Below, piece by piece: positions 452 to 28,135 of a stretch of DNA of 64,000 nucleotides. Under the pieces are notes generated by a model. That model did not search any database and was not told the DNA's origin. It saw only the letters and a list, made by a program, of their open reading frames with translations. Position 1 is the stretch's first letter, and each line of letters begins with the position of its first letter. Origin of the DNA: Azolla caroliniana. Lineage: Eukaryota; Plantae; Polypodiophyta. The stretch spans positions 8,494,001 through 8,558,000 of the forward strand of contig JBHGNT010000007.1 of NCBI GenBank assembly GCA_043228905.1, in the 5' to 3' direction. Made by a program: the position numbers and the translations under genes.

Positions 452-908
452 TATTACCGATTAGGAACATGGTCTACGGTTAGTCCTTGGACCTAGACCT
501 CAAAGTGACTGTGTTGCAACGAATGGTATCGTCGTAGTGGGATACCTCCCGTATCCTAGTAGTGTATACTAGAGACGGTTACAACCGAACTCCTTAGATA
601 GTGGACTAGCAACCACACTGTTACTCACGCCTACACTCTTATGACTGTGCTACGCCATCGAAGGATCACAGACACACAGTAGATTAACCATAGGTACGGA
701 CAGAATCAGAGAAGATAGAACTCTATTAAAATACGCCTTTTACATACAAAATTACATGCTCCCTCTATCAGAGGTTTCCTGCCCTTTATATACCCAGGGT
801 CTTTTAGCCATTCACGCTTCCCGCGTGAACCGTTTACATGCGTTACAATATTACTCTATTCTATAGTACTGCGCTCTTGTCCGCCGGTTACTATTCCGGC
901 AGACAACA
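452..908 (-). repeat. 3' LTR of Gypsy copy A (457 bp)
   Basis: tattaccga...gacaaca, homologous to 51701-51903 plus 57367-57626 (about 22 differences in the first ~200 bp). Minus-strand TATATAAA near 785-792. Preceded by ctctc (447-451). Confidence 0.9.
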
Positions 909-910
909 CC

Positions 911-927
911 TGGCACGCCTGTGGGAC
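911..927 (+). other. tRNA-Arg(TCT)-type primer-binding-like site, antisense to the element, at the expected PPT position
   Basis: TGGCACGCCTGTGGGAC, 2 nt from the LTR end. Resembles the complement of the plant tRNA-Arg(TCT) 3' end (TGGCACGCCCAGTGGGAC type, from memory). Confidence 0.7.
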
Positions 928-1117
928 AGTGCCATGGCACCTTGGACCCACCCCTTTAATCTTCCTCCAAAATGGCCCTGATGTTTGGTTCTGCTACGGT
1001 GTCCGTGTCCGAGAATGGCGTAGCGCCCGTGAGACGTGTCGTTGTGTGGTTTCCCTGCTTGGTCGGGAGGGCTTCCCATGGTGTCATTGACTTCATGTAT
1101 GGGCGTTCCGGGTTCTG

Positions 1118-3118
1118 CTAGCTCTTGTTGGGTTGTTGGGGTTGGTTTAACCGTCCGCGGGCTTGCGGTAGGTCGCGGCTCTGTTTCGTTACGTCCTTCG
1201 TGATGTCGGTCGTAGTCGTACGCTTTGGAGAGTGGGGTTGGGGTTCCTCTTGGTCCAGAACGTCCTCCGTGATGTCGGCCGTAAGCGTATGCTCCGGTGG
1301 TTGGGGTTCCTCTTGGTCAACAGTTTCGTTGTCTGGTATTGCAGGGGGCTCCGCTCGCCGTTCCGTGCTGTTCACCGTAGTGGTAATTTCCAATGACATG
1401 GGCTTAGGTTCCTCTTGTTCGGCAGTATCCGGAATTGGTATCACGATGGATTCCACGTTTATTCGTGTGCTACCAGCTTGCGTGATCTGGTGAAATAGGT
1501 CCTCCTGACTTTCACCAAAATCATCCAGTAGCTGCGCGAGTTCCTCAGAATGTTGGTCCGCTAGCGTGTGATAGTCCTGCGCTAGGACCTCATGTACTGC
1601 TGCAATGCTTTCCTTATTGAGTTTGTAGAACTCTTGGCCATCTTTCCTTCGGTTCTCCCAGTCCACTTGGTACGTATGCAATTCCTCCGCTTATGTAGCC
1701 CACGCCATCCATCCTTTGTCTAGCGCCAATTTTAATTGCGTCATAAACCTCTCTCGATTCATTTGCAGAGGGATGCACACGTTGTCTGTTATGGCTTGGC
1801 AATGGTTGCGTGCTTCTTCTACGAATTTCTTGTTTACTAACCGCCGCCGCTTCATCATAAGTGCTCCTCATTCCTGCCCAGAGCTGAGATTCCTTCGAAT
1901 GTAGTTCTTCCAGTTTTCCCATTTCATTGTTTAGGCGGATTTCTAGCTAATGCCTCCTCTCCTGTTTTCCAACCAGTTGCTCGTCGAACCATGCTTTCTT
2001 CTTCTCCAATAAGGCACGGAGTCCCGGGATTGCCGCTTCCGATTTTTTCGCTTCCTCCCGTAATTTGGCATTTTCTTCTTTTGTTTGGGTGTGCTGTGCT
2101 GTCTCCGTTGCGAGTTTCTCTTCAAGGGTATTCACTGTCTTTCGGCCGTTGGCCCGGACGTCCTTTTCACTGTCCAAGGACTGGCGAAGTTCGGCGCGGA
2201 GAAGGTCAATCTCTAATTCCGCCAGTTGCACGACCCGTTTCGCTTTCGAGGCAATGGCAGTCTGAGCTTCAATTCCTTGCCTCAGGGCTTCGACGACGTT
2301 GGTTGTTGGTGGAGTTGCCTGTTGCGCCGTAGTTGCGTTATTTTCCAACTCCGTGATGCGTTCATTGGCCTTTTGTAGCTCGGCTTGGGTCAGTTTAACC
2401 TTTTTCCAGACATTTTTATTTTTAATCGCCATATCCTTGGCGCCCATACTGACCTTTGCCAGTTCCCTATGAATTTCGACAGGGGCCGCATTTAATGGGG
2501 GTAGTTCCATCCCCATTCCACGTATATCGGCGTTCCTTTGCCTGCCTACTCTGGCTAACTGATCCTCATCGTCGCTTTCCACCGTTTGTGTTAACACGCA
2601 CTCGATCATTTGGTGCTCCGCGTGCTCCTCGGCCATTCGTTGTGAGACTTTTATCTATTGCGTTTGCAAGAATTCCATGAGTTCAAAAGTGGTTCCGAAT
2701 TGTAATAGTGCACCGAACTCATGGGCCGTGTCCGGAATTTCCGGACACGCCAGGACCTCGCTTTCCGTTGTCAATACAGCTTTCCCCCACTGTGACTTGG
2801 CCATAATGATCGGCCGTGGTTCCCGGATTACTTCGAAGGTGGTGTTGCGCTCCGTAGCTACGGAGCTGTCGCCCACGGTCGTCGTCTCCGTGGCCGTGAG
2901 TGTGTCTTTAACTAACCCGCGCCTATCTTTCCTGTCTAGTCTCCGTCGTTTTGGCCTCGGGCTTTCGTGCTGTGGTTCGGCTTCCGGCTCTGGTGCCGCT
3001 TCCTTGGTGCGCTCAGCCTGCTCTACCTGTGTTGTTCGCGTGTTCGGCTGGGCGGGTTGGGGTTCATCCTCCCACTCTGTGGTGGCTAACTCCGCTAACA
3101 TTCGCTTCGTGGATCGAG
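1118..3118 (-). pseudogene. 3' part of extra ORF2 of Gypsy copy A (charged, coiled-coil-like, disrupted)
   Basis: Consecutive ORF pieces 2655-3101, 1947-2636, 1614-1922, 1118-1681; homologous to 44071-45567. Confidence 0.75.
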
Positions 3119-3926
3119 GGGCCTCTGACCGGAAGATATCAAATTCGTATGCTTATATTAAACAATTAATGGAAAATGAGAAAAGAAAAATTACAATCAA
3201 TCCCAAGATTGGGATTACAAAAGTTTTAGCTTATGGAGATTACTAGAATAATAGATTATAGAATAATAGATTAGAAGAAACTAAGATACGGATTCGATAG
3301 GAAAATTATATGGCTTATGTAGGGAAAATTAGAGTTTATGCCTTCCGAAAGGAAATTTAGGGTTCTTGGTTTCAATAAGATAAGGGAGCTTAGAAGGAAA
3401 AGAAAAATAATTAAGATAATACGGAGAGAGCCTAAGTGTAGGAAAAGAAAAATGGAATTTTATATGGAGTTCTCCCTTGATAATCTGCATGTCTAGTTTT
3501 TGTTGCATGGCTTCTACTTTTAGTTGCTTAGATTTTTCTTTTAGTTGCATCTATTTTTAGTTGCATGCCTTTTTCTTTTAGTTGCATGCGACCGTCCACA
3601 TGACCTTTACTTTAGTTTTCTTCACTTCACTTTAATTAACCACATGATCCTTTTATCTGTTTGGTTTGCGTCCAGCCTTGTCCGGTCGCCGGTTCCGTTC
3701 AGTCGCCGATTGCCGCCACCTCGCCGGCTCCGCCACCGGTTCCGGTTTGCTTATCGGCCGGTTTTTGGTTTTGCTTACCGGCCCAGTTCCGGTTTTGCTT
3801 ATCGGCCCGGTTCCGAATTGCTTACTGGCCTGGGTCCGAATTGCTTCCTGGCCGGTTCTGGTTTGCTTCCCGGCCGGTTTTCGGTTTTGCTTATCGGCCC
3901 GGTTCCGGTTTGCTTCCCGCCTGGTT
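3119..3926 (-). repeat. Truncated LTR fragment of the Trp-primed element
   Basis: Very similar to 18268-~19060 (ggcctctgaccggaagat...). First ~48 bp and the TSD are lost together with ~600 bp of host ORF2. Confidence 0.82.
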
Positions 3927-4629
3927 GATACGTGAATGTTGAGAAAGAATTAACCGAAATGAGAAAGATGTCGTGAAAATACGACGAGGATACGTGAACG
4001 TTGAGGCAAGACCCCGTGGTCTTTGACTAGAGGATATCAAATTTGTGTATTTATGTACTAAGAATTAACCGAAATGAGAAAGATTAACAAATTTCATTAA
4101 CAAGTAAAAAGAAAGATTACAATTAATCCCATGATTGGGATTACAAAAAGTTTGCTAATGGAGATGGCTAGAGTAATAGATTAGAAGAAATGAGATATGG
4201 ATTTAATTAGAATATTAGGGGTTTTAGCTTCAATTCGAAAATTAGGGTTTTTGAGTTGTATGGCTTTGATTAGGAAATTAGGGTTTTTGAGTTCTATGGC
4301 TTTTATTAGGAAATTAGGGTTTACTTGAGAGATAGCTTCCTTCCCCTCTCAAAGAGAATTATGAGTTTATGAGTGATTAGCCCTTAATTCACGGATTCTT
4401 CCTTTTTTTTTCTCTCCTTCCCTTGCATGCGTCCACATGGCGTTTGCTTTGGTTTTCTTCACTTTACTTTAGTTTGTTGCATGATCTCCATCTTTTTGTT
4501 GCACACCTTCCACATCACCTTTACTTTTTGCATGCACTCCAACTTTAGTTTGTTGCATGATCCAATCTTCTGTCCGTTCGCGTCCAACCTCATCCGGTAG
4601 CCGGTTCCGCCCGATCGCCGAATCCCTCG

Positions 4630-4970
4630 CCGGCCGGTTCCATTTTGCTTGCTGGCCGGTTCCGATTTTGCTTGCCGGCCGGTTCCGGTTTGCTTGCCAG
4701 TTCCGGTTCCGGTTTTGCTTACCAGCTAGTTTCCGGTTTCTAGTTTTGCTTACCAGCCAGTTTCCGGTTTCCGGTTTCCGATTTTGCATAGTGGCCACTT
4801 TCTGGATTTGCATACCGACCAGTTTCCAGATTCCGGTTTTGCTTACCGACCGGTTTCTGGTTTGCATACCTGCATACCAGCCAGTTTTTGGTTTTGCATA
4901 CCGGCCGGTTTCTGGATTTGCTTACCAGCCGGTTTCCGGATTTGCTTACCAGTCGATTTCCGGTTTTTGG
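4630..4970. repeat. Degenerate ~21-22-bp CCGG-rich tandem repeat inside the LTR (also ~3735-3925 and ~18895-19075)
   Basis: Repeated ccggtt(t/c)ccggttttgcttaccgg units. Confidence 0.85.
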
Positions 4971-5216
4971 GAACTTGGCCACCATCATCCATCAAGACAA
5001 AGTGGCCAAAGTGCTCTTAGCACAAATGAAAAATGAGAGAGCTCAAGGTGCTTATATAGTTAGGGTCTTAAGTTTCCTATCTATGTGGGATAGTTCTAAT
5101 TTCCCTATCTTCTCAAACTTCATTTTCACATAACTTGATATGTATTTCTCCATTTTGTATATAGTAAAATATGTTTTGAAGCTCTTGAGTACATCCATAT
5201 TTCTATAACAAGCTAC

Positions 5217-5663
5217 TGTCATGATATGGCAAGACTCGAACCCATGACCTTATGGTATATGGGTCGAGCTCGTAACCATCACACCATCTATTGTAATGCA
5301 TAGGATATTATTTGCATTTATGTTTTATTATAAGAAAGTAATGTATATTCCAGATTTCTCTGGAACATTCTAGAAGTTTCAGGATTACTCCTGACAACAC
5401 TATAAAAGAAGGCACTAGACATTATGTTGAACCAAATTGGTTCAACGCAAGTGTTAAGCCTCTTAGCTGCTTTGTACTTATCTTTTCACATAATATATTA
5501 GCTTCTGTCATCATCTTTCTCTCTCTCTCTCATCCTCGCTATCTCTCTCTCTCCTCTTCTCACTTCCTCTCTCGGGAATCTCACGCAATCCCGTCTTCTT
5601 AGTACTAATAGTACTTCCCTTCTTAGTACTAATTCCATCTCTACTTTAGTACTATTCCTGACA
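5217..5663 (+). repeat. 5' LTR of chromovirus 1
   Basis: tgtcatga...cctgaca; TATAAAA at 5401. Confidence 0.95.
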
Positions 5664-5739
5664 GTTTGAACCAATTTTTCTTCCTTTCCTCCTGCCTACT
5701 TGTCGTTCTCCCTCATCCTCCTACCCTTTTCCCTATACT

Positions 5740-6898
5740 ATGGCTACTGTTAGTGCCCAAGAATATCAATCCGTTTTCTCCGAGTTACAGTGCCTAAAAG
5801 AAAAGTTTGTTGCCCGGGAACAAGAAAACCAACGGTTGATAGGGTATCTGCAACAAATCGCTCTCGAAAAACAACAAACGCAACAACAACATGGGAAGTT
5901 AGCGTTACGGGTACAACAACTCGAAGCAGCGTTGCCACAACAAGGATCAAGTCCCCAAGGATTTCATAAAGAGCCCAAGATTGGACTTCCTGTGAAATTT
6001 GATGGAACACGATCGCAATTCCGGGGATTCCTTAATCAGGTACACTTAGTCATCCAGATGCATCCTTCCCGATATCCCACTGATGCATCTCGAGTCGGGC
6101 TAATAGGCACGTTACTTAGCGGCTCAGCCTTGGCATGGTTCGCTCCACTTCTAGAAAAACAATCACCCTTGCTTAATACCTTTGAAGATTTTATTGGTGA
6201 GTTTAAAGCCTACTTTGGAGATACCGACAACATGAGGACGACGATCAACAAGATCCGAAGATTGCGTCAAGGCGATCATCCAGCCTCGGCCTACGCGGCA
6301 GATTTCCGTCTACTCGCCTCAGATATCCCCTGGGATGATTAGGCCCTCATGGAGCAGTTTCGCTACGGCTTGCGCAACGATGTCAAAGACTTGCTTTTAA
6401 CCTTCCCCGAGGAACCAAAGTCTCTTATGGAGGCAATAAGTCGAGCGGTCCGATGCGACAGCCGCCTTTTCGAACGACGTTCGAAATGTTAGTTACAAAT
6501 ACCATGCTCTCGGCCGGAACCCACATACGCCTCAGTCACGGCTTAAACCGTTTGCATGCGATGTACCTAAAGCCAATATTCCGACACCGATGGAGATCGA
6601 CACCATGCGTCGACGCGGCCCGTTATCGGAAGAACAAAAGCAACGACGACGTGCCAATCGATTATGTCTTTATTGCGGTGGACCAGGGCATATCGCCATC
6701 AATTGTCCCCATAGGCCAAGAAGACAGGTAAATCAAATTGTCGCCTGTACTAAACCCGAGTCAATTATTCCCTTCGAAGTGTTTGATAGTATTAATAGTA
6801 CTAATAGAGTGTCAGATAGTATTCATAGTACTAATAGCCCAAGTATCTCAAATAAATTTGAAATCCTTAGTCAATTAGATGAAGAGTTAAACGATTGA
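5740..6898 (+). pseudogene. gag: Gag of chromovirus 1 (premature stop at 6340-6342 and a frameshift)
   Basis: KEPKIGLPVKFDG, LRQG, CCHC knuckle CLYCGGPGHIAINC. Confidence 0.9.
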
Positions 6899-9800
6899 GT
6901 CCAGCCAAAATAGGAGCCGTTTGGTTGGACAGCAGCCCTAGATCTGTACAGCCCATTAGTGGTTCCATTCTTTCTAAGCAAGTTAGCAATGTGTTCCTAG
7001 CCCAAGTCATTGTTAGTACTAAAAGTACTCCTCCAGTACCCGTCCTAGCAATTTTAGATTCCGGAGCTAATTCCTGTTTCATGGATCGAAATTTTGCCCA
7101 AGCTTCTCAGATATCCTTAAGAAAACTTCCTTGTCCCGCATCTGTAGTAGTCATTGATGGTCGTCCCATTGCTTCCGGGAATATTGTAGAAGAATCAGAA
7201 CCCATTAAAGTTGTCCTAGGTAGTTTTGTGTGTGTAATATCATTTAATATAATTAGTAGTCCAGAGCATCCCATTGTCCTAGGATTAGCTTGGTTTGAAT
7301 TACATAATCCAGCCATAGATTGGAGAACAAGAGAAGTCCGATACCGACCACCCCAAGAATCTACTCACCGAGTTTCGACCATTTCACTCCATCAATTACG
7401 CGAAGAAGGACACAAGGAGGCAATGTTCCTATTTGCAATATCAGTACATCCTTCCAACACTATTAAGAAGGACTCCTCAGTACAACTTCCGGCAAAATAT
7501 CATCCTTATGCCGATGTATTTGACAAGGTAAAAGCCGGTACCCTTCCTCATCACCGTCCCTATGACTGTCCCATCGATTTACAACCAGGAACCGAGCCAC
7601 CATGGGGACCAATTTACAACTTTTCACCCACCGAGTTAGAAGTCCTTCCAGCCTACATAGAGGAGAACTTGGCAAGCGGGTTCATCCGTCATTCGAAATC
7701 TCCGGCCGGTGCACCCATCTTCTTTGTCAAGAAGAAAGATGGCTCACTTCGTCTCGTCGTTGATTACCGCGGATTGAATAAGGTCACCATCCAGAATAGG
7801 TATGCACTTCCTCTTATATCAAGTCTTTTGGAGCGAGTTAATGGTGCCAAGTTTTTTACCAAAATCGATCTACGAGGAGCGTATAACCTGGTGCGGATCC
7901 CACCGGGAGATGAATGGAAGACCGCCTTTCGCACGCGATATGGCCATTTCAAGTATACTGTTATGCTGTTCGGCTTAACCAATGCACCCGCAGTCTTCCA
8001 ACACATGGCAAATGATATATTCAGAGACCTCTTGGATATCTGTTTGATCATCTATCTGGATGATCTATTGATTTATTTGAAGACCCAGCAAGAGCACGAT
8101 TCTCATGTACTATTAGTACTAAAACGACTCTGCGAGAATGGTCTTTATGCCAAGCTAGAAAAATGTAGCTTTGACTGCAAGCAAGTGGAATTTCTAGGCT
8201 ACGTCATCTCCTCAAAGGGCATCGCCATGGATTCAGCTAAAGTCCAAACTGTACTAGAGTGGCAAATTCCACGGTCAGTACGAGATGTACAATGTTTTCT
8301 AGGTTTTGCTAACTTCTACCGTAAGTTTATACAGGATTACTCGAAGATTATTTTACCCCTCACACAACTTACGAAGAAGGGCCAAGAATTTCTTTGGTCC
8401 ATTGAAGCAGATATGGCTTTTCGACATCTTAAGAAAGCCTTTACATCAGCACCGATTCCAGCTCATGTGGATACCAGCAAACCATTCATCATGGAGGCCG
8501 ACGCTTCAGATTTCGCTCTCGGTAGCATCCTTTCTCAACAAGGAGATAAAGAAGAGTTGCATCAGGCGGCTCTCCATTCGTGCAAATTCGATGTCGCGGA
8601 AATCAACTACGAAATACATGACAAGGAGTTATTAGCCATCGTGGATTCATTTGTGCAATGGCGGCATTTCTTAGAGGGCTCTCCACATCAGGTCATTGTC
8701 TTTAGTGATCATAAAAATCTTGCTTATTTCCAGAACGCTCGTGTATTAAATCGACGGCAAGCTCGGTGGGCACAATTCCTCACGCATTTCGACTTCAAAA
8801 TCACATATCGACCGGGGAAGCAGCAAGGAAAAGCAGATGCACTATCACAACGTTCGTATCTTACACCTCGTCCTGGTGATCCAACATTTGATAATCAAAA
8901 GCAAGTAATCTTGGGACCAACACGATTGCACACGACACAGATTTTTCACATCCCGATGGATTCACGGATTACCGATGACATACATGCAAACTTGAAGACA
9001 GATAGCTTTGCTCAAGACATCTTGGCGCACATTGATACTTCTCGGGCATCCTGTTCTCAGTCTCAACAACCAGGTATTGACTACCGACAATTCGAATATC
9101 ATGATGGATTGTTATTCTGTAAAAAGCGCGTATATGTCCCCGATTGCTCCTGTCGCCTTCAAATCGTTCAGCATTGGCACGACACCCATACAGCGGGACA
9201 TTTCGGTAAAACTAAGACGTTGGAGCTAGTGCAGTGATCTTTTTGGTGGCCCCACATGCGCCGTTTTGTTGACGACTACGTTCGGACCTGTGATGCTTGT
9301 TGCCGAGCAAAGATGCCACGACACCATCCATATGGCTTGTTGGAACCCTTACCGATTCCAAGTAAGCCGTGGCAGTCTATTTGTCTTGATTTTATCACAG
9401 ATCTGCCGGTCTCGTAGGGGTTCGATGCTATCTTAACCGTCGTCGATCGATATACGAAGATGGCACATTTCGTTCCGTGTACTAAGGCCATCACTAGCGA
9501 GGAAACTGCCGCCCTAGTCATGCGTGAGGTATTTCGGCATCATGGCCTCCCAGACAGTATCATCAGTGACCGAGGACCGCAATTTGTCTCCAAATTTTGG
9601 CAGCATCTCTTCAAGATGCTCAAGGTCTCTTGCAACCGCTCCTCCGGCTACCATCCTCAGACCGATGGGCAGGCGGAACGAACAAACCAAACGTTGGAGC
9701 AATATATCCGGTGTTTCCTAAGTTATCAGCAGAACGATTGGGCCGAGATTCTCCACTATGCGGAGTTTGCGTATAATAATGTTGTTCACTCCTCGATTCG

Positions 9801-10650
9801 AGTCTCCGCATTCTACGCTTATACCAGTTCTCATCCTCGTTGGTCGGTGATCGACACCCCGGAACTACATTCCAATCCTCGTGCCGGGAATCATTTGGAG
9901 AGACTATGCAAGTTCCAGACAGATCTCTCGACTCATCTTTGTCATGTTCAACAGACACAGAAGACTTACGCGGATCGTCATCGGCTTCCCTCCTGTTTTG
10001 CCATCGGAGATCGAGTATGGCTCTTACGTCGTCACATCAAGACTACTCGACCGTGCGACAAGTTGGATTATCGACGACTCGGTCCTTTCCGTATTATGGG
10101 TAAGGTTAATGATGTCACATTCCGCCTTGATCTCCCTCCACAGCTTCAGATACATCTAGTTTTCTATTGTTCTCTTCTTGAACCTTATAAAGCAAACACC
10201 ATTCCCGATCGTGTTACACCACCGCCACCCCCGCTCGAGTTGGACGCCGGCCCGGAGTATGAATTTGCTGCCATCCTCGATTCCAAACTTATTCGCAACA
10301 AACTTTATTATTTGGTCGATTGGCTTGGTTATAGTCCGAGCTTCTTGAACCTTATAAAGCAAACACCATTCCCGATCGTGTTACACCACCGCCGCCCCCG
10401 CTCGAGTTGGACGCCGACCCGGAGTATGAAGTTGCTACCATCCTCGATTCCAAACTTATTCGCAACAAACTTTATTATTTGGTCGATTGGCTTGGTTATA
10501 GTTCGAGCGAACGCACTTGGGAACCCGTCGAGCATGTTGTCAATGCTCAGGATCTGCTTGCTGATTTCCATCGAAAGTATCCGGACAAACCCGGTCCGCA
10601 ATCAACACCGACTCATTCCACTCGTCTTTAAGGGGGAGATAGTGTCATGA
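6895..10650 (+). pseudogene. pol: Pol of chromovirus 1 (protease, RT, RNase H, integrase, chromodomain) with stops and an internal duplication
   Basis: LDSGA; YLDD; EADASD; SDRGPQF; GPF; chromodomain EYEVATILDS...YLVDWLGY...TWEP. Confidence 0.93.
10174..10507 (+). repeat. 167-bp tandem duplication across the integrase-chromodomain junction
   Basis: 10174-10340 repeated at 10341-10507 (cttcttgaaccttataaagc...ggttatagt(c/t)cgag). Confidence 0.9.
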
Positions 10651-11087
10651 TATGGCCAAACTCGAACCCATGACCTTATGGTATATGGGTCGAGCTCTTA
10701 ACCATCACACCATCTATTGTAATTCATAGGATATTATTTTCATTTATGTTTTATTATAAGAAAGTAATGTATATTCCAGATTTCTCTAGAACATTCTAGA
10801 AGTTTCAGGATTACTCCTGACAACACTATAAAAGAAGGCACTAGACATTATGTTGAACCAAATTGGTTCAACGCCAGTCTTAAGCCTCTTAGCCGCTTTG
10901 TACTTATCTTTTCACATAATATATTAGCTGTTGTCATCATCTTTCTCTCTCTCTCATCGTCGCTATCTCTCTCTCTCCTCTTCTCACTTCCTCTCTCGGG
11001 AATCTCACGCAGTCCCGTCTTCTTAGTACTAATAGTACTTCTCTTCTTAGTACTAATTCCATATCTGCTTTAGTACTATTCCTGACA
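10643..11087 (+). repeat. 3' LTR of chromovirus 1
   Basis: Direct repeat of 5217-5663. Confidence 0.95.
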
Positions 11088-11644
11088 GCTACTAATCTAA
11101 TCAAAATAATTGTTTCATTATTTATATTTATTTTTTTACATAATTTTTATATCGTGTGTGAAAAACCACACGACATTCACCCCCACCAAACCTGCACATC
11201 CACCGGTATGTGCCAATTTTGGTGACTCTCCACTTTTGATTACTTTACTTTTTTATTGATGTACTCGAATCGCCATTGTCATCTGATCCACCATATTCTT
11301 CGTTCAGTCTTTGCATTTCCATGACCGATTGTCATTGCTCTCTTTGCTCCTCTAGAGCATAATGCTTCACTCTTTATGCATGTGCCACCTTCATCTCGGC
11401 CATCTCCTTGGTCATCTAATTTTCTCTTATCATTCTTTCTTGTTCCATGCATGTCTTTCAAAAGCCTTATCGAAATACTATGGTTGTGTCATGAACACAT
11501 GACCATTATGGCGTCACCCGGACTTGAACCTCGAACCTTGCAATTCATACTTGAAAACCTCAACCATTAAGATAGCTTACTGTTATATAAAACAATAAAA
11601 GCTACTTCTTATATTACATTGATTATTGTAAAAACTCTAGATTA

Positions 11645-11708
11645 TTCTAGAATGTTCTAGAATGTCCTAGAGCATTCTAGGTCTAGAACATTCTAGAACA
11701 TTCTAGAA
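11645..11708. promoter_or_regulatory. Heat-shock-element-like nTTCnnGAAn array upstream of the LTR TATA box
   Basis: ttctagaatgttctagaa...ctagaacattctagaacattctagaa; TATAAATA at ~11734. Confidence 0.6.
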
Positions 11709-11959
11709 ATCTCTAAGCTATTCTATAGGAACCTATAAATAAGCGCATACATGTATTCTCAAATCAATTCGAATCAACACCAGTCTTTAGCTCTCATTAC
11801 ATATCTTGTATCCATTCTCTTTCTTTCTCTATCTTATACATCCATTCTTCTCTATCCTTCTTCCATCACTCTATCTTTTATCCTTGGTTCTGACAGTTTG
11901 ATTCAAATTCTTTCTCTCTCTCTCTCTCTCTTATCCTCCTTTGTAACCATCCTGAAACC

Positions 11960-13123
11960 ATGGTTTCCATTAACTCAGAAGAATATCTCACCCTTGTTGC
12001 AGAAATGGAGAACCTTATATCCAAGTTCGCATCTCTTGAAGTAGAGAATCAACGTCTACTTGGGGATCTACAAAAGGTTACTATAGAGAAGCAACAACAA
12101 GAAGAGGAGTTCACGCGACGAGTGCAACAGTTAGAGTTGACAATTGTTGTGTTACAACAACAAAGGGTTGAAGGTCAGGGACTTATCAAGGAGCCCAAAA
12201 TTAGCCTCCCAGCTAAATTTGATGGGTCGAGGGCGCATTTCCGAGGTTTTTTGAATCAAGTACGGTTGGTGATTCAAATGCATCCCGCACATTATCCAAC
12301 AGATGCATCACGAGTCGGGCTAGTGGGCACTTTATTGACTGGCATAGCGTTGTCGTGGTTTGCTCCATTGCTAGAGACCAATTCTCCTCTACTGAATAAT
12401 TTCAAGGAATTTATCAAGGAATTTAAGTCTTGTTTCGGAGATACTGATGGGGCGAGAACAACTATCAACAAGATTCGTACACTTCGTCAAGGCGATAAAC
12501 CAGCTTCAACATATGCTGCCAATTTCCGTCTCATCGCAAGCGATATTCCTTGGGATGAACAAGCCCTAATGGAGCAATTCCGTTCAGGCCTTCGTAGTGA
12601 TGTCAAAGACTTACTTCTTACCTTCCCCGAGGATCCAAGGTCACTTACAGAAGCTATTAGTCAAGCAATACGGTGTGATAATCGCCTTTTTGAGCGTCGA
12701 TGTGAGCGACAACAACAAATAACAAGATCTAGATTCACACCAACTTATGCATCAGTAACGACGCAATCATCCCCAAGGCAAATGTATAGCCCTGCTCCAA
12801 CTCCAAGGCAAACACGTAGTCCAGTCCCAATGGATAGTCCTACACCCATGGAGATCGATATGACTCAACGACGAGGGCCGTTGTCAGACGAAGAGAAGCA
12901 ACGTCGTCGAGCAAACCATCTGTGCTTATATTGTGGAGGTCCAGGACATATAGCCATTCATTGCTCCCGTAGGCCGAGACGTCAGGTAAATCAAATTCAC
13001 TATGACAATAAAAATGAGTCCAACATTTTAGAAGTAGTTAGTGAATCTAATATTATGAATAATCCACCCTTGTCCAATAAATTTGAAGTCCTAAGCCAAT
13101 TAGAAGAGGAGTCAAACGAATAA
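11960..13123 (+). CDS. gag: Gag of chromovirus 2 (open, 387 aa)
   Basis: KEPKISLPAKFDG, LRQG, CLYCGGPGHIAIHC. Confidence 0.9.
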   Translation: MVSINSEEYLTLVAEMENLISKFASLEVENQRLLGDLQKVTIEKQQQEEEFTRRVQQLELTIVVLQQQRVEGQGLIKEPKISLPAKFDGSRAHFRGFLNQVRLVIQMHPAHYPTDASRVGLVGTLLTGIALSWFAPLLETNSPLLNNFKEFIKEFKSCFGDTDGARTTINKIRTLRQGDKPASTYAANFRLIASDIPWDEQALMEQFRSGLRSDVKDLLLTFPEDPRSLTEAISQAIRCDNRLFERRCERQQQITRSRFTPTYASVTTQSSPRQMYSPAPTPRQTRSPVPMDSPTPMEIDMTQRRGPLSDEEKQRRRANHLCLYCGGPGHIAIHCSRRPRRQVNQIHYDNKNESNILEVVSESNIMNNPPLSNKFEVLSQLEEESNE

Positions 13124-16100
13124 GTCCGGCCAAAATAGGAGCCATTTGGTTGGACAACCCTAGATATGTACAACCTAGTGTGGGTTCCATTTCTTCCAAG
13201 CATGTTAGTAGAGTCTTCTCAGCCCTAGTACAAGTTAGGACACCCAGTTGTCAAATTCAAGTCCAAGCCCTCTTAGATACTGGAGCCAATTCTTGTTTCA
13301 TGGATAGAGATTTTGCCCAAAAACACCAAATATCCTTGCATACACTTCCTTGTCCAGTTTCCGTAGTAGTGATTGATGGACGCCCCATAGCTTCCGGGAA
13401 GATATTTGAAGAGTCTGAGCCAATACACATACTCTTGGGTGATTTAGGATGTGTAGTTTCCTTTAACATAATCCGTAGTCCTGAGCATCCAATTGTCCTC
13501 GGTTTGCCATGGTTCGAGCTACATAACCCTAGAATCGATTGGAGGAAGCGAGAAATTAGGTGCCCTTTAGCAGAAAATATCATTGCCAAGGATCGAACTC
13601 GGGATTATCCTCCCAAAGTATATAGTTCTACCGATACACCATATCCTTCTCATCAAATTTCAGCCATCACATTGCAACAATTGCACCAAGTGGGAGGCAA
13701 GGAGGACCTTTTCTTATTTGCAGTATCAGTGACACCTTCTAGTGTCACTCAAGGGAATTCAGACATCCAAATTCCCAAAAAATATCAAGACTATGCTGAT
13801 GTTTTCGACAAAGTCAAAGCTAGTGTTCTTCCAAAGCATCGGCCGTACGACTGTCCTATTGATCTCCAACCAGGAAAAGAGCCTCCGTGGGGTCCGATTT
13901 ACAATTTATCACCCACTGAGCTTGAGGTTCTTCGAGAATACATCGAGGAAAATCTTGCACATGGGTTTATTCGACATTCAAAGTCTCCAGCTGGTGCTCC
14001 TATCTTTTTTGTGAAGAAAAAGGACGGCTCCCTTCGTTTGGTCGTGGACTATCAAGGCTTAAATAAAGTCACCATAAGGAATAGGTATGCTTTACCTTTA
14101 ATCTCCAATCTCTTAGAACGCATTGGTGGGGCAAAGCATTTTACCAAAATTGATCTAAGGGGTGCATATAATCTTGTTCGAATTCGGCCAGGAGATGAGT
14201 GGAAAACAACATTTCGTACTCGGTTTGGTCATTTCGAGTATACAGTCATGCCTTTCGGGCTCACAAATGCACCTGCCGTATTCCAACATATGGCAAATGA
14301 CATCTTCCGGGATTTCTTGGATATTTTTCTTATCATCTACCTAGATGATCTATTGATTTACTCTAAAACACAGGGGGAGCATGATATACATGTGCGGCAA
14401 GTACTTGAACGCCTAAGGAAGTATGGTCTTTACGCCAAACTTGAGAAATGCAGTTTTGATTGCAAACAAGTCGAATTTTTGGGATACACTATTTCATCCC
14501 AGGGTGTTTTCATGGACCCGGCAAAAGTCCAAACAATATTGGAATGGAAACCCCCATGCTCAGTTCGGGATGTCCAGTGTTTCCTCGGATTTGCGAACTT
14601 CTATCGCAAATTCATACATAATTATTCAAGCATTGTGTTGCCCCTTACTCAACTCACCAAGAAAAATCAAGCATTTTTTTGGAGTATCGAAGCGGACAAG
14701 GCTTTTACGCAGCTAAAAGAGGCATTCACATCAGCACCCATCCTAGCACATATTGATCCTGCACATATTGAGGCGGATGCATCAGACTTTGCATTGGGAA
14801 GTATCCTATCGCAACCAGGCGAGGACGGGCAGATACATCCAGTCGCGTTTCACTCGAGAAAGTTTACTGTTTCGGAGATAAACTATGAGGTGCATGACAA
14901 GGAGTTACTAGCTGTGGTCGACTCATTCGAGCAATGACGTCATTTTCTAGAAGGATCACCTCATCAGATTATCATTTATAGTGATCACAAAAATCTCACA
15001 TATTTTCAAACAGCTCGAGTATTAAATAGACGACAAGCTTGGTGGGCCCAATTTCTAATGCGTTTCGATTTCAAGATCATTTTTTGCCCCGGAAAACAAC
15101 AACGGAAAGCAGATGCTTTGTCTCGGCGTTCGTATCTAGCACTTCGACCTGGAGATCCGGCCTTTGACAATCAAAAGCAAACTCTCCTCGGGCCATCAAA
15201 GCTACAGGTAACAACAATTTATGCCACACCACTTGATTCTACCCTTCTTGACACTATTCGGCAACAACTTCATTCGGATGATTTTGCTAAGGATGTCTTA
15301 GCCCACTGTGGTTCAAGTCGTCCATCTTGCTCCACATTGCCAGGGTCATCTCAACATTATAAGGACTTCAAGTGGCAAGATGGTTTACTCTTCTACAAGA
15401 ATCTCCTTTACGTCCCCGACGGATCACCCCGACTTCAAGTGTTGGAACATTGTCATGATGCCCCCATGGCTGGACATTTTGGTATTTCCAAGACCATTGA
15501 GCTGGTGAAACGTTCGTTTTGGTGGCCTCACTTGCAAAAATTTGTCGAAGATTATGTTCGCACTTGTGACACCTGCTGTCGCGCCAAAATACCCCGGCAT
15601 CACCCTTATGGCTTACTACAACCATTACCCCCTCCCAACAAGCCATGGCAGTCTATTTCTATGGATTTCATTACGGATCTGCCACCTTCCAAAGGCTTTG
15701 ATACTATTTTAACAATAGTGGATCGGTTCACCAAGATGGCACATTTTGTACCATGTGTAAAGACCATCAATAGTGAAGAAACTGTAGATCTCATTATGCG
15801 TGAAGTGTTTCGCCATCATGGTCTCCCGAATGATATTATTAGCGATCGAGGTCCTCAATTTATCTCACACTTTTGGAAGCACCTATGGGCAGGCCTCAAA
15901 ATATCTTGCAAACTCTCTTCGGCTTATCATCCACAAACTGACAGACAAACAGAGCGCACAAATCAAACGCTCGAGCAATATCTTCGATGTTTCATTAGTT
16001 ATCAACAAGATGATTGGAGTAAAATTTTACATCTTGCTGAGTTTGCATACAACAACACAGTCCACTCTTCTTCCAAAGTTACACCTTTCTTTGCCTACAC

Positions 16101-16545
16101 CGGCAACCACCCTCGATGGTGTATACTGGATCTTCCGGAGGTGTCACGAAACCCTAGTGCGGCGCATCACCTCCACCGACTACAACAAATCCAGTTCGAG
16201 TTATCGTCACATCTTCAGAAAGCGCAAGCACACCATAAGACCAATGCCGATCGACATCGTCTTAAGTCTCCGTTTAAGGTTGGTGACCTTGTATGGTTGC
16301 TTCGTCGTCACATCAAGACTACCCGACCATGTGCTAAGCTTGACTATCAACGCTTAGGTCCTTTTGTCATCACGGCGCAGATTAATGATCCAACATTTCG
16401 TCTTAACCTTCCTGCACATATGCGGCTTCACCCTGTCTTTCATAGCTCTCTTTTGGAACCTTGCCACACCTCTTTAATTCCTGATCGTGTCGTGCCACCA
16501 CCGCCTTCTGTACAACTTGTGGACGGCCCCGAATACGAGGTAGCT
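13111..16545 (+). pseudogene. pol: Pol of chromovirus 2 (stop at 14935-14937, truncated)
   Basis: LDTGA, YLDD, EADASD, integrase zinc-finger and core, GPF. Confidence 0.92.
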
Positions 16546-18174
16546 TTCTTGGTATACTCTTGTGTTGGAATTGACCATGACTTCTACGCTAGTATTATCC
16601 TTGTTAAATTTTGTGATCACATCTTTCATATCCGCTTGGCCCACTTGGCCCATATCTTTGCTTTTTGAGGTTTGCTTGGTCTCTTTGTCGCACACATTAG
16701 CTTTTGTCTTTGTGCTTTGCTCGACCTCTTTGTCGCACGCATGGACTTTCATCATGTTTCTTTGCTTTACTTCCTTGTTGCACACATTGGCTTTCACCCT
16801 TGCTTCCTCGCCGCCATCGTCCTTCTCTTGGATCTTACATCGGTTAATGCCCAAGTCTCTCAAACGAGTGTGGAGGAATTTTGTAGTTTGGCATTGCCTT
16901 TGTCGTGCTACCCTTAGCCACTTCCACCTTATGGTTGTTCGCATTGGCTTTGACCTTTGTTTCTTTGCCGCCACCTTCTGTCTCTTGGGTCTTACATCAG
17001 TTAATGCCCAAGTCTCAAGAACTTTTGTGGGGAAAGTCTCTTCATGATGGTTGTCTACCGTCTTCGGCTTGATGTCATTCTTCATGGCTATCTCTTTAGA
17101 CTCATGGGCCTCGTACCCATTAATCCTCTTGTTCGAGCAAGCCTCGATTATTCTCCTCTCTTCTTTGCATGTGTTAATTTTGGCCTTCACTTCCTCGCTG
17201 CCACCTTCCATCTCTTGGGTCTCATGTTTGCTTTCCGACGCATCTGCCCAAGTCTCTAGAACAAGTGTGGAGAAAGTCTCGACACGGCCATCCGCCATTG
17301 ACTTGTCCATACCCACCTCTGACTCGATGTCGTTTTTCGTGGCTATCTCCTTAATCATGTTGACTTCACACTTTTTATCTCCCTTGATCATGCAAGCTTT
17401 GCTCATGCTTGCACCTTCATCACTTGATGTTTCAGACACGATACATGTTTCGAAACATTTGTCTTCACTTGAAGTTACATTCGCCACCCTCAATTCATTG
17501 GTTTCTTTCTTCATCATTCTTTCTTTGCAAGATGAGAAAGTATCTTGTTCCACACCTTCTTCCGTGGTTACATCGTGGTACCGAACCTGGGCCTTTGTAT
17601 CAACCGTAACATTAATCCGCATTTGTTGGGGGGCCTCTTCTTCTTCGCTCATCATTTGCTTCAGTTTTTGCTCCTTTTGAAGCTTCTCTTCAACCTCAAC
17701 TTGCGCCTTTAAGTTCTCGAATGCCTCTTCCATCAAGACTTCTATGTCGAGTATTGTTGAACCTTCCCTCTTCGAGTTTTCTTCTTTAGGTGGAAATTTG
17801 TAGTTGCATTCCGTCCTCCTTTCACCATCCGTCGTGGGTTGTTTTGTTGTCGATGAGAATCTTGTCTTCCTCTTATCATGTAGTTGACATACTCTTTCCA
17901 CTTTCATCCAATCCTCGGTGAGGCCATTTTCACCATCATCATCCTCAAGTCGGATTCCAATGGCCTTCCTTTCCTTCCGATCGATTGACTTCACAAACAT
18001 TAGGACTTTTTCCACCCCCACCAAACTTTGATCCCGCTCCGAGAGTTGTGCAAAGCAACACTCGAACTCAACAAAAGCATGCATGGCACTTTGGTGGGTC
18101 TCTAATGATGATACCCATTGGTCAAACTCGTATAGTTTGCATCTCTTCGGCTCTTTGTATCTATATGCCTCCAT
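16546..18174 (-). CDS. Gag-like ORF of the Trp-primed element with a long repetitive charged tail
   Basis: Part of ORF 16474-18174; starts ~25 nt after the PBS; N-terminus KVLMFVKSIDRKER...GLTEDW looks like a bryophyte Gypsy capsid; last ~24 codons read into chromovirus 2. Confidence 0.6.
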
Positions 18175-18198
18175 GAGATATCCTCCTACTGCCTCGTT

Positions 18199-18215
18199 TC
18201 ACGTCGGGTTCACCA
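18199..18215 (-). other. PBS complementary to tRNA-Trp
   Basis: TGGTGAACCCGACGTGA on the minus strand, 4 nt from the LTR; plant tRNA-Trp ends ...TCACGTCGGGTTCA-CCA. Confidence 0.88.
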
Positions 18216-18219
18216 AAGA

Positions 18220-19413
18220 TGTCACGAAAATACGACGAGGATACGTGAACTTTGAGGCAAGACCCCGGGGCCTCCGACCGGAAGATGTCAAATTCGTATG
18301 CTTATATTAAACCATTGATGGAAAATGAGAAAGATTGAAAAATTTCATTACCAAATAGAAAAGAAAAATTACAATCAATCCCAAGATTGGGATTACAAAA
18401 GTTTTAGCTTATGGAGATTGCTAGAATAATAGATTAGAAGAAACTAAGATACGGATTCGATAGGAAAATTATATGGCTTCCGTAGGGAAAATTAGGGTTT
18501 ATGACTTCCGTAAGGAAATTTAGGGTTCTTGGCTTCGATAAGATAAGGGAGCTCAGAAGGAAAAGAAAAAAAATTAAGATAATACGGAGAGAGCCTGAGT
18601 GTAGGAAAAAAAATGGAATTTTATATGGATTTCTCCCTTGATCATCTGCATGTCTAGTTTTTGTTGCATGGCCTCTACTTTTAGTTGCTTAGCTTTTTCT
18701 TTTAGTTGCATGCCTTTTTCTTTTAGTTGCATGCGACCGTCCACATGACCTTTACTTTAGTTTTCTCCACTTCACTTTAATTAGCCACATGATCCTTTTA
18801 TCCATTTGGTTTGCGTCCAGCCTCGTCCGGTCGCTGGTTCCGTTTAGTCGCCGATTGCCGCCGCCTCGCCGATTGCTGCCGCCTCGTCGGCTCCGCCGCC
18901 GGTTCCGGTTTACTTACTGGCCAGTTTTCGGTTTTGCGTACCGGCCCGGTTCCGAATTGCTTCATGGCTGGTTCCGGTTTGCTTCCCGGCCGATTTCCGG
19001 TTTTGCTTACCGGTCGGTTTCGGTTTTGCTTACCACCCGGGTTCCGGTTTGCTTACCGGCCGGTTTCCGGTTTTTGGGAACTTAGCCACCATCATCCATC
19101 AAGACAAAGCGGCCAAAGTTCTCTTAGCACAAATAAAAAATGAGGGATCTCAATGTGCTTATATAGCCAGGGCCTTAAGTTTCCTATCTATGTGGAATAC
19201 TTCAAAATTCTATTTTCCCTATCTTCTCAAGCTTAATCTCCACCTAACTTGATATGTAGTTGTCTATTTTGTATTTAGTAAAATTCGTTTTGAAGCTCTT
19301 GAGTACATCCATATTTCTATGACAAGCTACTAATCTAATCTAAAATAATTGTTTCATTATTTATATTTATTTTTTACATAGTTTTCATATCGTGTGTGAA
19401 AAACCACACAACA
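18220..19413 (-). repeat. 5' LTR of the Trp-primed element (1194 bp)
   Basis: tgtcacga...cacacaaca; host Gypsy sequence resumes at 19414. Confidence 0.88.
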
Positions 19414-19707
19414 GGGCAAGTGTGAGCTCTGTGATAGGATGGAGAAGAGGGTGAGACAGGGAAGCGATGAGAGTGATGAGAGTTAGAAGGTTGATTTTTA
19501 TGTTGTGTAGAAAACTTTCTATTTCCTTCTTTCTGTGGCCTAGGGTTCGTTGGTCGGTGAGCCATCGTGGTGCCTCGTGTTCTTGGCCTAGAAGTTTGTG
19601 CATGCCTTAAGTCCTTTTAATATCGTCGTTATCTTCTCTTTCTTTCTTTTTCGTAACGGTTACATACAATACTATTTTTACACTATAATACAAGTGGGGC
19701 CATCTAC

Positions 19708-21648
19708 TTACTCCGCGGATTCTCCGGCTTTGTTTGATCCGGTAGGGAACAAGTTAGGTGGCGTAGGTCCCAGATAAGGTTTAAGGCGAAATCCATTCAC
19801 TATTTGTCGTAACACTTCCCCGGCCAACATGCACAGTTGAAACGTGCCCTGTTCTGCTCCTACTATCCAGTACGGGCCTGTCCAGCGGAATCTTAATTTT
19901 CCTGGCATATGCCCCATGCGTGTTTGGAAAACTAATACCGCTTTTCCAACCGTTAAATCTTTTTCACGTGCATGCCGGTGTTAGTCCATGAATGCTTTGC
20001 GCCGCCGTTGTTCCTGCTCTAATATGGCCATACTACGTAACCTTGTTTCTCCTAGCTATAGTAGTTGTTCTAGCCGTACTTGTTCGGATTTGCCCTCTGG
20101 TAGCCGGGCTCGTACTTGAATCCGCAGACTGGGTACTTGGAATTCGACTGGCATCACGACCTCTAGACCAAATGCTAGCCTGAACGATGTTGATTGTATG
20201 CTGATCTTATAGGTGGTACGGTATTCCCATAACGCGCTATGCAACTTGGTGTCCCAATCTGTCCTGTTCTCATTGACTATCTTTTTGAGGATAGTTTGGA
20301 GGGTTTTGTTCGTGGATTCCGCCAAGCCATTTGCCTGCAGGTAATACAACGTACTATTTTTGTGCACCATAGTGTAATGTTGGGTCAGTTCGCTGATGAC
20401 CGTATTCAGAGAGTGACTCCCTTGGTCACTAATGAGCTCGATAGGGCAGCTAAAACGACACCAAATCTGTTCGTAAAGGAATTTCGCCGTGACTTCCGCG
20501 GTATTCTCACACAATGGTTTCGCTTCTACCCACTTGGTACAGTAATCTGTGGTCACCAGGATATACTTATTACCTGTTCGAGCAGCCGCGGCCCCCACTT
20601 TTGGAAAGGATCCAATGGTAACACTGGTTGGTGTGGCATTCTCACGACTTCCGTGGGCTGGCCCAGTCGTTGACATGAATCACACTGTTTGCAATATTCA
20701 TACGCGTCCTTTTGTGTCGTTGGCCACCAAAGTCCTGCTAGCCAAATTTGCCGGGCCATAACATCGCCCGCGTAATGTCCTCCTGCTGTACCAAAATGGG
20801 CTTCGCGTAGAACCGCGGCCTTCTCATCCTGCCGTATTCCGCGCCTCAAGATGTTGTCACTGCCCTTGTGGTATAGTATGTCTGCCACTAAACAGAAGTT
20901 TCGACTTCGTACGGCCAACCGTTTTTTCTCGTCCGTCCATAATTGAGGTGGCGGTAACCCTATGGTCAGGAAGTAGGTCATTTCCATGAGACACCGATCC
21001 GGGACAGTCTTTTCCGTTCGTTCTGCTAGCGTTGCTACCCGCAGAATGTCCGCATCTGGAAAGTCATCGTCATCCTTCTGCGACGTTTCTCCATTATCGA
21101 GTCTGCTCAAAAAATCTGCCACTACGTGTTGTGTACCTGGGCGGTCCTGAATTCCAAAGTCGAATTCTTGAAGCAACAACATCCATCTCGCCATTTTCCC
21201 CGTCAGCGCTTGTTTCCCTACCAAATATAGCAGTGCCGAATGATCCACGTGAAACGTGAATTTTCGCCCTAGCAGATAATGTCGGAACTTATTGATGCTA
21301 TAGATCATACCCAATGTGTCACGCTCCGTTGTGGGATAGTTACGATCAGCCGTTGGTAATTTCCGACTAGCGTAGTACACCGGCCGGTACCAATTCGGCT
21401 CCGTGAGCTGCATTAGCGCACTACCTATTTCTATGTCTGAGGCATCTACGAACACGTGGAATGGCTTCGCCCAAACTAGTGCTTGTATGACGGTTGCCTA
21501 CGTTAGCATTACCTTTAGCGCATCATATGCCTTCTCTTCCGTAGATGTCCATTGGAAGGGAGTTTGATGAACGGTGGCATGTAACGGCGTGGCGAAGTCC
21601 GCCAAATAGCGTATCATTTGATTATACCATCATATTTGCCCTAAAAAC
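19708..21648 (-). pseudogene. pol: RNase H and integrase of Gypsy copy A
   Basis: FVDASD, DYCTKWVEA, SDQGSH, QANGLAE, RWTGPY; frameshifted. Confidence 0.9.
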
Positions 21649-22119
21649 TGTCAAGACTGAGAGAAAGAAAGAGAGAGAAAAAGAGATAGAGAGATAATTG
21701 AAAGAGAATTATTATATTGAAGTGTAAAATGAATTACAAAGAGTAGGCTACAAAATGGCGTTGAACCAATTTAGGTTTGGGATGGGTGGTAGATCCCTAT
21801 TTATAAGTAATAGAGAACACTCTAGAATATTCTAGGTTATCCTAGAATGTAGAGTAATCTAGAAGATCTCTAGAGTATTCTAGAAGGTTCTAGTGGTATA
21901 GAACACTCTAGAATATTCTAGGTCATTCTAGAATGTAGAGTAATATAGAATATTCCTATGATATTAGATTTCATATTCTAGAGACTATACATATAAGAAT
22001 ATTAATACAATGGTTAAAGATTTGACATGTGTACAACAAGGTCGTGGGTTCAAATCCTTTCGAGTCATAATGTGAGTGTCATGATCCTTTCGATGCATGA
22101 TGTGAGTGTTATCATGACA
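21649..22119 (-). repeat. 3' LTR of chromovirus 3
   Basis: tgtcaagac...tcatgaca; direct repeat of 27660-28130. Confidence 0.95.
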
Positions 22120-22715
22120 CTATCCCCCTTCTTTGACGACACGTCTCACGGGTCGTAGGGTTTGTATTAGGACTTGGTTTACAAGGATATTGGCGATTAA
22201 ATGCATTGGAAAGATTTGCGGCAGGTTCCCAAGTTCGATCATTGGGGGTATAGCGTAGCCAATTGACTAAGTAATACAGCTTGTTGCGCACAATTTTAGA
22301 ATCAAGAGCGGCAGCAATTTCAAATTCAGGTCCGTCCAAGAACTTGACAGATGGTGGGGGTGTCGTAAGATGGCCCGGAATTGAACTTGTAGTATAAGGT
22401 TCCAAAAGGGATACATGAAACACCGGATGAAGATGCATGGGCGGAGGGAGGTCAAGACGAAATGCAACCTCACTTATCTTACCAGTGATCATGTAAGGGC
22501 CAAAACGTTGGTAATCCAATTTACTACAAGGTCGAGTGGTCTTGATGTTGTGTTGGAGAAGCCATACATGATCCCCAATGCGGAACTTTTTTGAGGAGTC
22601 TAGACGATGATGATCGGCAAGCCTCTTGTGTGTAAATTGAGCATCATGCAAATTGTGGAGAATGTTAGCTTGAATTTCTTGGAGGTGACTAAGACGATCC
22701 TCGGCAACAGGGTTG

Positions 22716-26400: not shown

Positions 26401-26447
26401 TACATAGCTAGGATGGTCCAACCAAATGGCTCCTATTTTGGCCGGAC

Positions 26448-27571: not shown

Positions 27572-27659
27572 AGCTTACGAGGGGAGAGGAGAAGGAAGAA
27601 GAAAACTTGTTAGGGTTTGTGGAAGACGAAGACATAAAAAGAAAAAAATTGGTTCAAAC

Positions 27660-28130
27660 TGTCAAGACTGAGAGAGAGAAAGAGAGAGAAAAAGAGGTAG
27701 AGAGATAATTGAAAGAGAATTATTATATTGAAGCGTAAAATGAATTACAAAGAGTAGGCTACAAAATGGCGTTGAACCAATTTAGGTTTGGGATGGGTGG
27801 TAGATCCCTATTTATAAGTAATAGAGAACATTCTAGAATATTCTAGGTTATCCTAGAATGTAGAGTAATCTAGAAGATCTCTAGAGTATTCTAGAAGGTT
27901 CTAGTGGTATAGAACACTCTAGAATATTCTAGGTCATTCTAGAATGTAGAGTAATATAGAATATTCCTATGATATTAGATTTCATATTCTAAAGACTATA
28001 CATATAAGAATATTAATATAATGGTTAAGGATATGACATGTGTACAACAAGGTCGTGGGTTCAAATCCTTTCGAGTCATAATGTGAGTGTCATGATCCTT
28101 CCGATGCATGATGTGAGTGTTATCATGACA
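27660..28130 (-). repeat. 5' LTR of chromovirus 3
   Basis: Direct repeat of 21649-22119. Confidence 0.95.
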
Positions 28131-28135
28131 AAAAC

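Follow-up and report, generated by a model that had tools for sequence, protein, structure and literature searches.

In the Ty3/Gypsy family described here, the polypurine tract (PPT) is missing from the 3′ junction, and its place beside the 3′ LTR is taken by an inverted, two-part complement of the 3′ arm of a tRNA. This inverted site is the family's normal 3′ junction, conserved and a property of the lineage. Plus-strand priming from a PPT is treated as general for LTR retroelements in the portions of the literature available to us (PMC5371799, PMC3185662, PMC10886601). From the sequence comparisons, we put at about even the chance that a second host tRNA binds the minus-strand cDNA at this site and starts the plus strand there.

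The window (the whole 64-kb stretch of DNA that was analysed) contains a nest of LTR retrotransposons set within an array of degenerate tRNA-Ser(GCT) units, in which ARAGORN made 31 tRNA-Ser calls. The array, possibly a tRNA-derived satellite, occupies 1-451, 29216-44070 and 57627-64000 in repeats of ~150, 300 and 700 bp and is inverted near 63000. Self-blast and translation identified in the nest two partial, minus-strand copies of one Ty3/Gypsy family. Copy 1 extends from an LTR at 452-908 through the 3′ part of ORF2 (956-3119, with stops and frameshifts) to a pol part at 19415-29216, which is split by a Tcn1-like element (21646-28130) and has lost its 5′ end at the tRNA-Ser array. Copy 2 starts at 44071, where the array truncates ORF2 (44071-46118), and continues through a gag-PR-RT-RH-IN region (46457-51586), broken here and intact in relatives, to an LTR at 51701-57626; its 3′ end is missing. 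From the two parts we infer a full element of ~8.5-9 kb. The Pfam domains RT, RNase H and integrase follow one another as in Gypsy elements, and the four acidic motifs of the RNase H appear intact when read from the translations. An archaeal RNase H (aRH, PF13456) gave no Pfam match in the window ORFs or in the relatives P0003 and P0005, and no chromodomain was matched after the integrase in the window copy or in the intact relatives. ORF2 is a sense ORF of 800-870 aa, present also in the relatives P0115-P0125. It begins with a conserved domain of ~170 aa, its middle part is probably a coiled coil, and its C-terminal end is acidic. It matched no Pfam family above the cut-off, in the window or in relatives, and weak atlas matches (<=0.85) to DUF1985 and to the plant mobile domain serve only as leads.

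At the outer flanks of the two copies, 447-451 and 57627-57631 form a 5-bp duplication with 1 mismatch, in the same register of the tRNA-Ser unit: the left flank stops at unit position 74 and the right flank begins at position 70. This is a probable target-site duplication (TSD), and the two halves may descend from one insertion that was later duplicated along with the array. The internal duplicates of copies 1 and 2 are 87.5-89.8% identical, a divergence like that of the LTRs, with which two separate insertions at a preferred site, through tRNA-Ser targeting, would also be compatible. The nest has other residents. An element on the minus strand at 3120-11175 and 16474-19414, element X, has long LTRs, a 574-aa ORF without a Pfam match and a G-rich tract at its 3′ LTR, and serves as an internal control; its PBS at 18198-18215 is of what we take to be the Trp type, and the element is a candidate Phygy. 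Besides the Tcn1-like chromovirus that splits copy 1, two more are nested at 5211-11088 and about 11490-16700; two of the three could be placed in the RT-RH tree, where they lie beside chromovirus-like rows. The presence of Tcn1-like elements would point to a seed-free plant as host (PMC6317226).

The LTR at 452-908 is the 3′ LTR and the minus strand is the sense strand, since this is the orientation shown by a TATA-like box in U3 (785-792, minus strand), by the ORFs and by a PBS lying 4 nt inward of the right-hand LTR. An earlier note on this DNA had likewise read the TATA box, gag-pol and ORF2 on the minus strand, and sequence and Pfam bear it out. The plus strand as the genomic strand was ruled out by the TATA-like box, by every ORF and by the gap-type 5′ PBS; the opposite end of the element has no PPT on the plus strand either. 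U3 starts at 908, the LTR has TA..CA ends with the first TG decayed, and loose ends of public contigs fall at 454, near the LTR edge. The partner LTR on copy 2 (51701-51901 and 57362-57626, minus strand), which blastn pairs with it at 414 identical of 462 aligned positions, is interrupted by a young Copia element (51902-57361; LTRs 99.7% identical, 5-bp TSD). The 5′ PBS does lie where the earlier note had put it, at 51683-51696 on the minus strand: it is canonical, 14 nt long and 4 nt from the LTR, and the window holds a decayed copy, the family majority in public contigs differing from it at three positions, 51686, 51688 and 51691. Locus L066, a relative from a metagenome, has the same type of 5′ PBS junction. 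Position 51688 is dimorphic in the family, one base reaching ~82% in run X1, and the window has the minor base, which is the one that matches the 3′ motif; the dimorphism may reflect two tRNA isodecoders. The tRNA label for the 5′ PBS, as for the 3′ motif, is presumably Arg(UCU).

At the 3′ LTR there is indeed no PPT, as the earlier note had claimed: the longest purine run in the 15 nt abutting the LTR is 3. All four other LTR elements scored in the window have purine runs of 5-12 within the last 20 nt preceding their 3′ LTR. The opposite-strand motif that had been reported 2 nt from the LTR, at 911-927, is also present as described, but it is the first half of a longer arrangement that extends to 951. 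After the 2-nt gap (909-910; likewise 2 nt in L003, a relative described below), the inverted PBS at 911-927 on the plus strand is complementary to the CCA end, the acceptor strand and the 3′ T-stem strand of a tRNA, about nt 59-76 and one base short, and so lies on the strand equal to minus-strand cDNA. A 14-nt spacer with a 4-bp hairpin follows (928-941), and then a second block on the plus strand (942-951), complementary to the T-loop and the 5′ T-stem strand, about nt 49-58; the tRNA numbering of both blocks is our own. With up to 3 mismatches allowed, the 17-mer at 911-927 has 1 match in the window, where 0.03 would be expected by chance. A generic scan for tRNA complements that requires a self-complementary T-stem recovers the 911 site with its 14-nt spacer, and the loose form of the scan gave 8 further matches that we take to be chance. 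A role as a Pol III B box was rejected, the B-box-like word being split by the 13-14 nt spacer.

The motif fills the space between ORF2 and the LTR. Alignment with P0116 fixes the ORF2 C-terminus at 959, with the stop at 956-958, so that the interval from stop to LTR is 47 nt in the window, 43 of which are motif and gap; in L003 it is 42 nt. Two features near the site need to be described differently from before. The palindrome of the earlier note is found at 929-940, within the spacer, but the conserved feature is the 4-bp hairpin. The purine-rich tract is correctly located at 947-968 (minus strand), but apart from its overlap with the T-stem block it is mostly ORF2, 956-968 being the final acidic codons and the stop. 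In the predicted fold of the minus-strand DNA the first 12 nt of the motif are open in both the window and the L003 copies, and the motif folds are no more stable than those of shuffled sequences (z -0.64 to 0.16).

The junction is deeply covered by contigs of runs X1 and X2 (organism A) and X4 (organism B), which come from three studies and one of which may be the window's own source. The family comparison inside both LTRs that had been suggested in the earlier note finds the motif, and not a PPT, at the majority 3′ junction in the contigs of all three runs. Among the best-supported 40 of 361 difference rows, none falls in 902-940; with the majority bases at 941 and 943, the spacer edge and the T-loop word are intact again. 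Coverage immediately inside the LTR was divided by coverage beyond the internal motif, which gave ratios of 3.9, 4.4 and 3.4 (X1, X2 and X4) for the 3′ junction; for the 5′ PBS the values were 3.7, 3.2 and 2.5. These ratios come from summed contig depth and are not a copy number. The motif is found next to LTR ends at about the same frequency as the normal PBS. A further run, X12 (organism C), carries only about 898-936, and because its flanks are different and its loose end runs into the T-loop block, the motif is common to another family. The second block deviates at the family level at position 943-944 in organisms A and B and in the loose end of organism C; both deviations are wobble-compatible in pairing on the DNA side, and on the RNA side they spoil the mimicry of a T-loop or a T-stem. 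In 2 contigs a loose end gives an 18-nt form of the 5′ PBS, whose distal part matches the 3′ motif, and the match of the 3′ site to the tRNA also includes positions that the 5′ PBS of the family does not cover.

Relatives were collected by a protein search and a partial metagenome scan, from which 80 loci were kept of 531 confirmed. In a FastTree phylogeny of 122 rows covering at least 80% of RT-RH, shorter matches having been dropped, the window copy falls in a clade of 32 rows with support 100; the non-chromovirus base of this tree, which includes no labelled Athila or Phygy reference, is not settled. L003, a single contig at ~5.5x, belongs to the same RT clade and is a collapsed element with both junctions around one LTR. 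In order, it has the T block at 415-425, a spacer of 13 nt, the acceptor block at 439-455, a 2-nt gap, the LTR at 458-917, 7 nt and the PBS. Upstream of the T block lies the presumed end of its ORF2, with the same C-terminal motif, where tblastn gave no match. The LTR interiors of L003 and the window share nothing alignable, but the two 43-mers align with a score of 20, where the best of 20,000 random 43-mers reaches 7. The acceptor block is identical at 15 of 17 positions, the spacer keeps the same 4-bp stem with one compensatory G-C to A-T pair, and the 15 nt abutting the LTR again have a longest purine run of 3. The L003 LTR carries a TATA-like box in the same sense as the window's. The 5′ PBS of L003 belongs to a different type, which L002 also has. 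Scans that demanded an exact start of the motif passed over L003 because its CCA-pairing base has changed. The concern of the earlier note that the two tRNA sites came from two different copies is therefore largely removed, the junctions being family-wide in contigs, both present on the one L003 contig, and the window flanks in register.

In a fuzzy search of the 80 loci, the 3′ junction motif was found only in L003 and a match to the 5′ PBS in L066; one of the 80 reached the 3′ junction of this clade, most clade loci ending before the LTR, and it is chiefly this that restricts how widely the result applies within the clade. Outside the clade, seven of the eight readable 3′ junctions have purine runs of 5-11 (L023, L028, L056, L063, L069, L070 and L073, of which L070 and L073 are near-identical). 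The exception is L057, where an LTR copy at 14440-14530 has no preceding purine run; the two LTRs of this locus are 14.5 kb apart and may not be the ends of one element. Motif and protein scans of a viral contig collection gave no match, and a scan of a genome contig collection gave 2 bacterial matches, with ~1 expected by chance. As for the tRNA itself, Rfam reported no tRNA in 860-1020, only a chance miRNA match, ARAGORN called 0 tRNAs in 39 of the 80 metagenome loci, no host tRNA matching the motif was present in the viral contig collection, and a literature search for one returned a single unrelated match. The reference used for counting pairs was accordingly a putative one, built from the general geometry of tRNA and the loose end in 2 contigs.

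These observations suggest how the element could be replicated. A tRNA at the 5′ PBS would prime the minus strand as usual, and after the first jump RT would copy U3 and then the motif, which RNase H would free as single-stranded DNA. In the predicted fold of the motif DNA the first 12 nt stay unpaired, and this toehold could be bound by the CCA end and acceptor strand of a second tRNA, whose T arm would open and pair with 921-927 and then, across the looped-out hairpin, with 942-951, for a total of ~27 pairs with one tRNA base bulged. The 3′-OH of the tRNA would be extended by RT through the 2-nt gap into U3; RNase H would later remove the tRNA, and integrase would trim the 2-nt extension (909-910) from the cDNA. 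We lean slightly toward the view that a Gypsy clade of seed-free plants abandoned the PPT and came to have both cDNA strands primed by host tRNAs, of which the second may differ from the first. As part of that joint reading, it is likewise a little better than an even prospect that the second tRNA lands on a dedicated, structured pad of minus-strand DNA, so that the replication signals would be symmetric.

Several points favor priming by a second tRNA. The plus strand needs a 3′-OH at U3, and the sole conserved non-coding sequence there resembles a tRNA 3′ arm in the polarity of a primer, with just the 2-nt spacing such a 3′-OH requires, which argues that either a tRNA or an RNA copy of one primes. 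The motif is kept in L003 beside another type of PBS, and the 3′ junctions of other elements do carry purine runs. There is also precedent for the geometry: in the available parts of PMC3185662 and PMC5371799, respectively, methylated A58 bounds PBS copying in retroviruses, and the bipartite PBS of Ty1 contains a small internal loop, while in Ty3 the T arm is bound. By our tRNA numbering, the motif is split at A58. Against this reading counts the apparently intact RNase H, since a tRNA:DNA hybrid is an RNase H substrate, and so does the finding that the folds are not more stable than shuffles. L003 also has two changes that misfit the DNA-side pairing: one is beside the bulge, and the other, which may be decay in this single ~5.5x contig, affects the CCA-pairing triplet.

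The primer could instead be supplied in cis, with the element's own tRNA-like RNA surviving RNase H, or being cut after the CCA, and then extended as a PPT would be. This is the strongest of the competing readings, although a doubtful one. The site is exactly at the place of a PPT, neither a second molecule nor a fresh annealing step would be needed, the sense RNA can form a T-stem in both families, which L003 lengthens to 6-7 bp, and the L003 changes that misfit DNA-side pairing would be harmless. However, any RNA structure is gone after RT has copied it, the folding of the RNA is no better than that of shuffles, and the changes in the second block, of the T-loop word in the majority and of the T-stem in organism C, weaken an RNA mimic. 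These same two changes, being wobbles on the DNA side and defects on the RNA side, favor a real tRNA. So do the split at the end of an 18-nt PBS span, as in a bipartite site, and the tight similarity reaching the T-loop, since a cis primer gives no reason for the T-loop word and the acceptor strand to remain tRNA-like at a distance of 25-40 nt from the cut. In an unlikely variant, the second tRNA would anneal to an antisense RNA from the 3′ LTR, and the short DNA so made would jump to the minus-strand cDNA and prime the plus strand. It makes the same demands on the sequence as annealing to cDNA and removes the RNase H problem, RNA:RNA duplexes being uncut by this enzyme, and RNA:RNA initiation complexes show extended T-arm pairing in the available portion of PMC5371799. 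Yet it needs an antisense promoter and co-packaging, neither of which was seen, and the TATA-like box reads best in the sense direction.

Two further explanations do without a second primer tRNA. That a distal PPT, the purine stretch 40-50 nt upstream, acts with a long U3 extension while the motif serves end processing or transfer seems improbable. A purine-rich sequence is there (947-968, and a stretch just upstream of the L003 motif), and the U5 side already tolerates gaps of 4-7 nt, but both stretches are codons of the acidic ORF2 C-terminus and do not align with each other, and the loose end in organism C has just a short G run. We know of no integrase reaction that trims ~40 bp. We consider it most improbable that the motif pairs with the element's own PBS, circularising the RNA or self-priming the minus-strand 3′ end, as the earlier note had proposed, or that a copying accident left it behind as a fixed relic. 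The two sites do complement each other to a large extent in the window family (10 of 14 positions identical, duplex -22 kcal/mol). In L003 only 6 of 14 positions agree, and 72% of 1000 shuffles do as well as its duplex (-8.0; mean of the shuffles, -9.5), which largely refutes own-PBS pairing; the second block, moreover, has no counterpart at the 5′ end. Because L003 keeps the motif despite a different type of PBS, the motif is not kept for pairing with the element's own PBS. Dimerisation through the palindrome finds no support in the same relative, which lacks the 12-nt palindrome and keeps only the 4-bp stem, and was rejected. The persistence of the motif together with a compensatory hairpin change, where the LTR interior is no longer alignable, excludes a one-off accident: a relic would not last longer than the LTR interior, would not acquire such a change and would leave the element without a plus-strand primer.

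If priming by a second tRNA is correct, a rule common to retroviruses and LTR retrotransposons would be broken by a successful, high-copy lineage without a PPT, whose RT would begin synthesis from a tRNA:DNA hybrid, or from a tRNA mimic, in spite of carrying an RNase H of its own. This would bear on how RT discriminates among primers and substrates and on the evolution of two priming modes, and control by tRNA fragments would gain a second target. The 43-nt element is directly testable in vitro. Our results also suggest that families of this kind are overlooked or given the wrong orientation by annotation tools that demand a PPT.

No description of an inverted PBS in place of a PPT was found in the literature searched, which under-represents subscription journals, so that a known kind of element apparently carries an undescribed plus-strand signal. 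The RT lies far from the window's Tcn1-like elements in the tree, which does not place the family among the chromoviruses. For the groups that remain, traits are taken as tabulated in the available part of PMC6317226, whose per-element list may include elements of this kind. Athila, of the non-chromovirus OTA group, shares with the window element the absence of an aRH and of a chromodomain, an extra 3′ ORF and, probably, a 5-bp TSD (PMC6317226), and the AT-rich gap of 3-6 nt between 5′ LTR and PBS reported for Brassicaceae in the accessible text of 10.64898/2026.03.20.713144 compares with 4-7 nt here. However, Athila as described in these sources mostly has a tRNA-Asp/Asn PBS and a conserved PPT junction, neither of which was seen in the window clade. 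An Asp/Asn-type PBS start was seen in L028, L023 and L037, not in the window clade, and in the FastTree phylogeny, which has no labelled Athila reference, this clade sits on its own branch apart from the angiosperm rows that lack an aRH. Phygy of Physcomitrella is also a non-chromovirus without an aRH, of similar length (7.7-10 kb) and from a seed-free plant, as the window's host probably is, but is tabulated with a tRNA-Trp PBS (81%), a 4-bp NCGN TSD and no extra ORF (PMC6317226). The window element, compared with Phygy by description since the tree holds no Phygy sequence, has a different PBS, an ORF2 and one probable 5-bp duplication. A tRNA-Arg PBS is common in Tat, Ogre, Retand and TatIII, where extra 3′ ORFs occur, but these groups are defined in the same table by the aRH that is absent here (PMC6317226), and the aRH rows form a separate clade.

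Helenus TRIMs likewise combine an LTR element with tRNA-derived sequence beyond the PBS. As far as the available portion of PMC10886601 describes them, they are non-autonomous and keep their PPT, and their tRNA-like part is a Pol III promoter within the LTR, whereas here the B-box-like word is split by the 14-nt spacer and lies outside the LTR. Bipartite T-arm binding of a tRNA is known from Ty1 and Ty3, in the excerpted account of PMC5371799, for the minus-strand primer. With canonical Ty3/Gypsy elements and retroviruses, as the accessible parts of PMC5371799 and PMC3185662 present them, the family has LTRs, a 5′ tRNA PBS and PR-RT-RH-IN in common; in those systems plus-strand synthesis begins at a PPT that resists RNase H, and the two halves of the PBS are on the genomic RNA, whereas here there is no PPT and the polarity of the 3′ site is opposite. 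With LTRs flanking gag-PR-RT-RH-IN and a tRNA PBS inside the 5′ LTR, the element is Ty3/Gypsy-like in every tested respect except its plus-strand signal.
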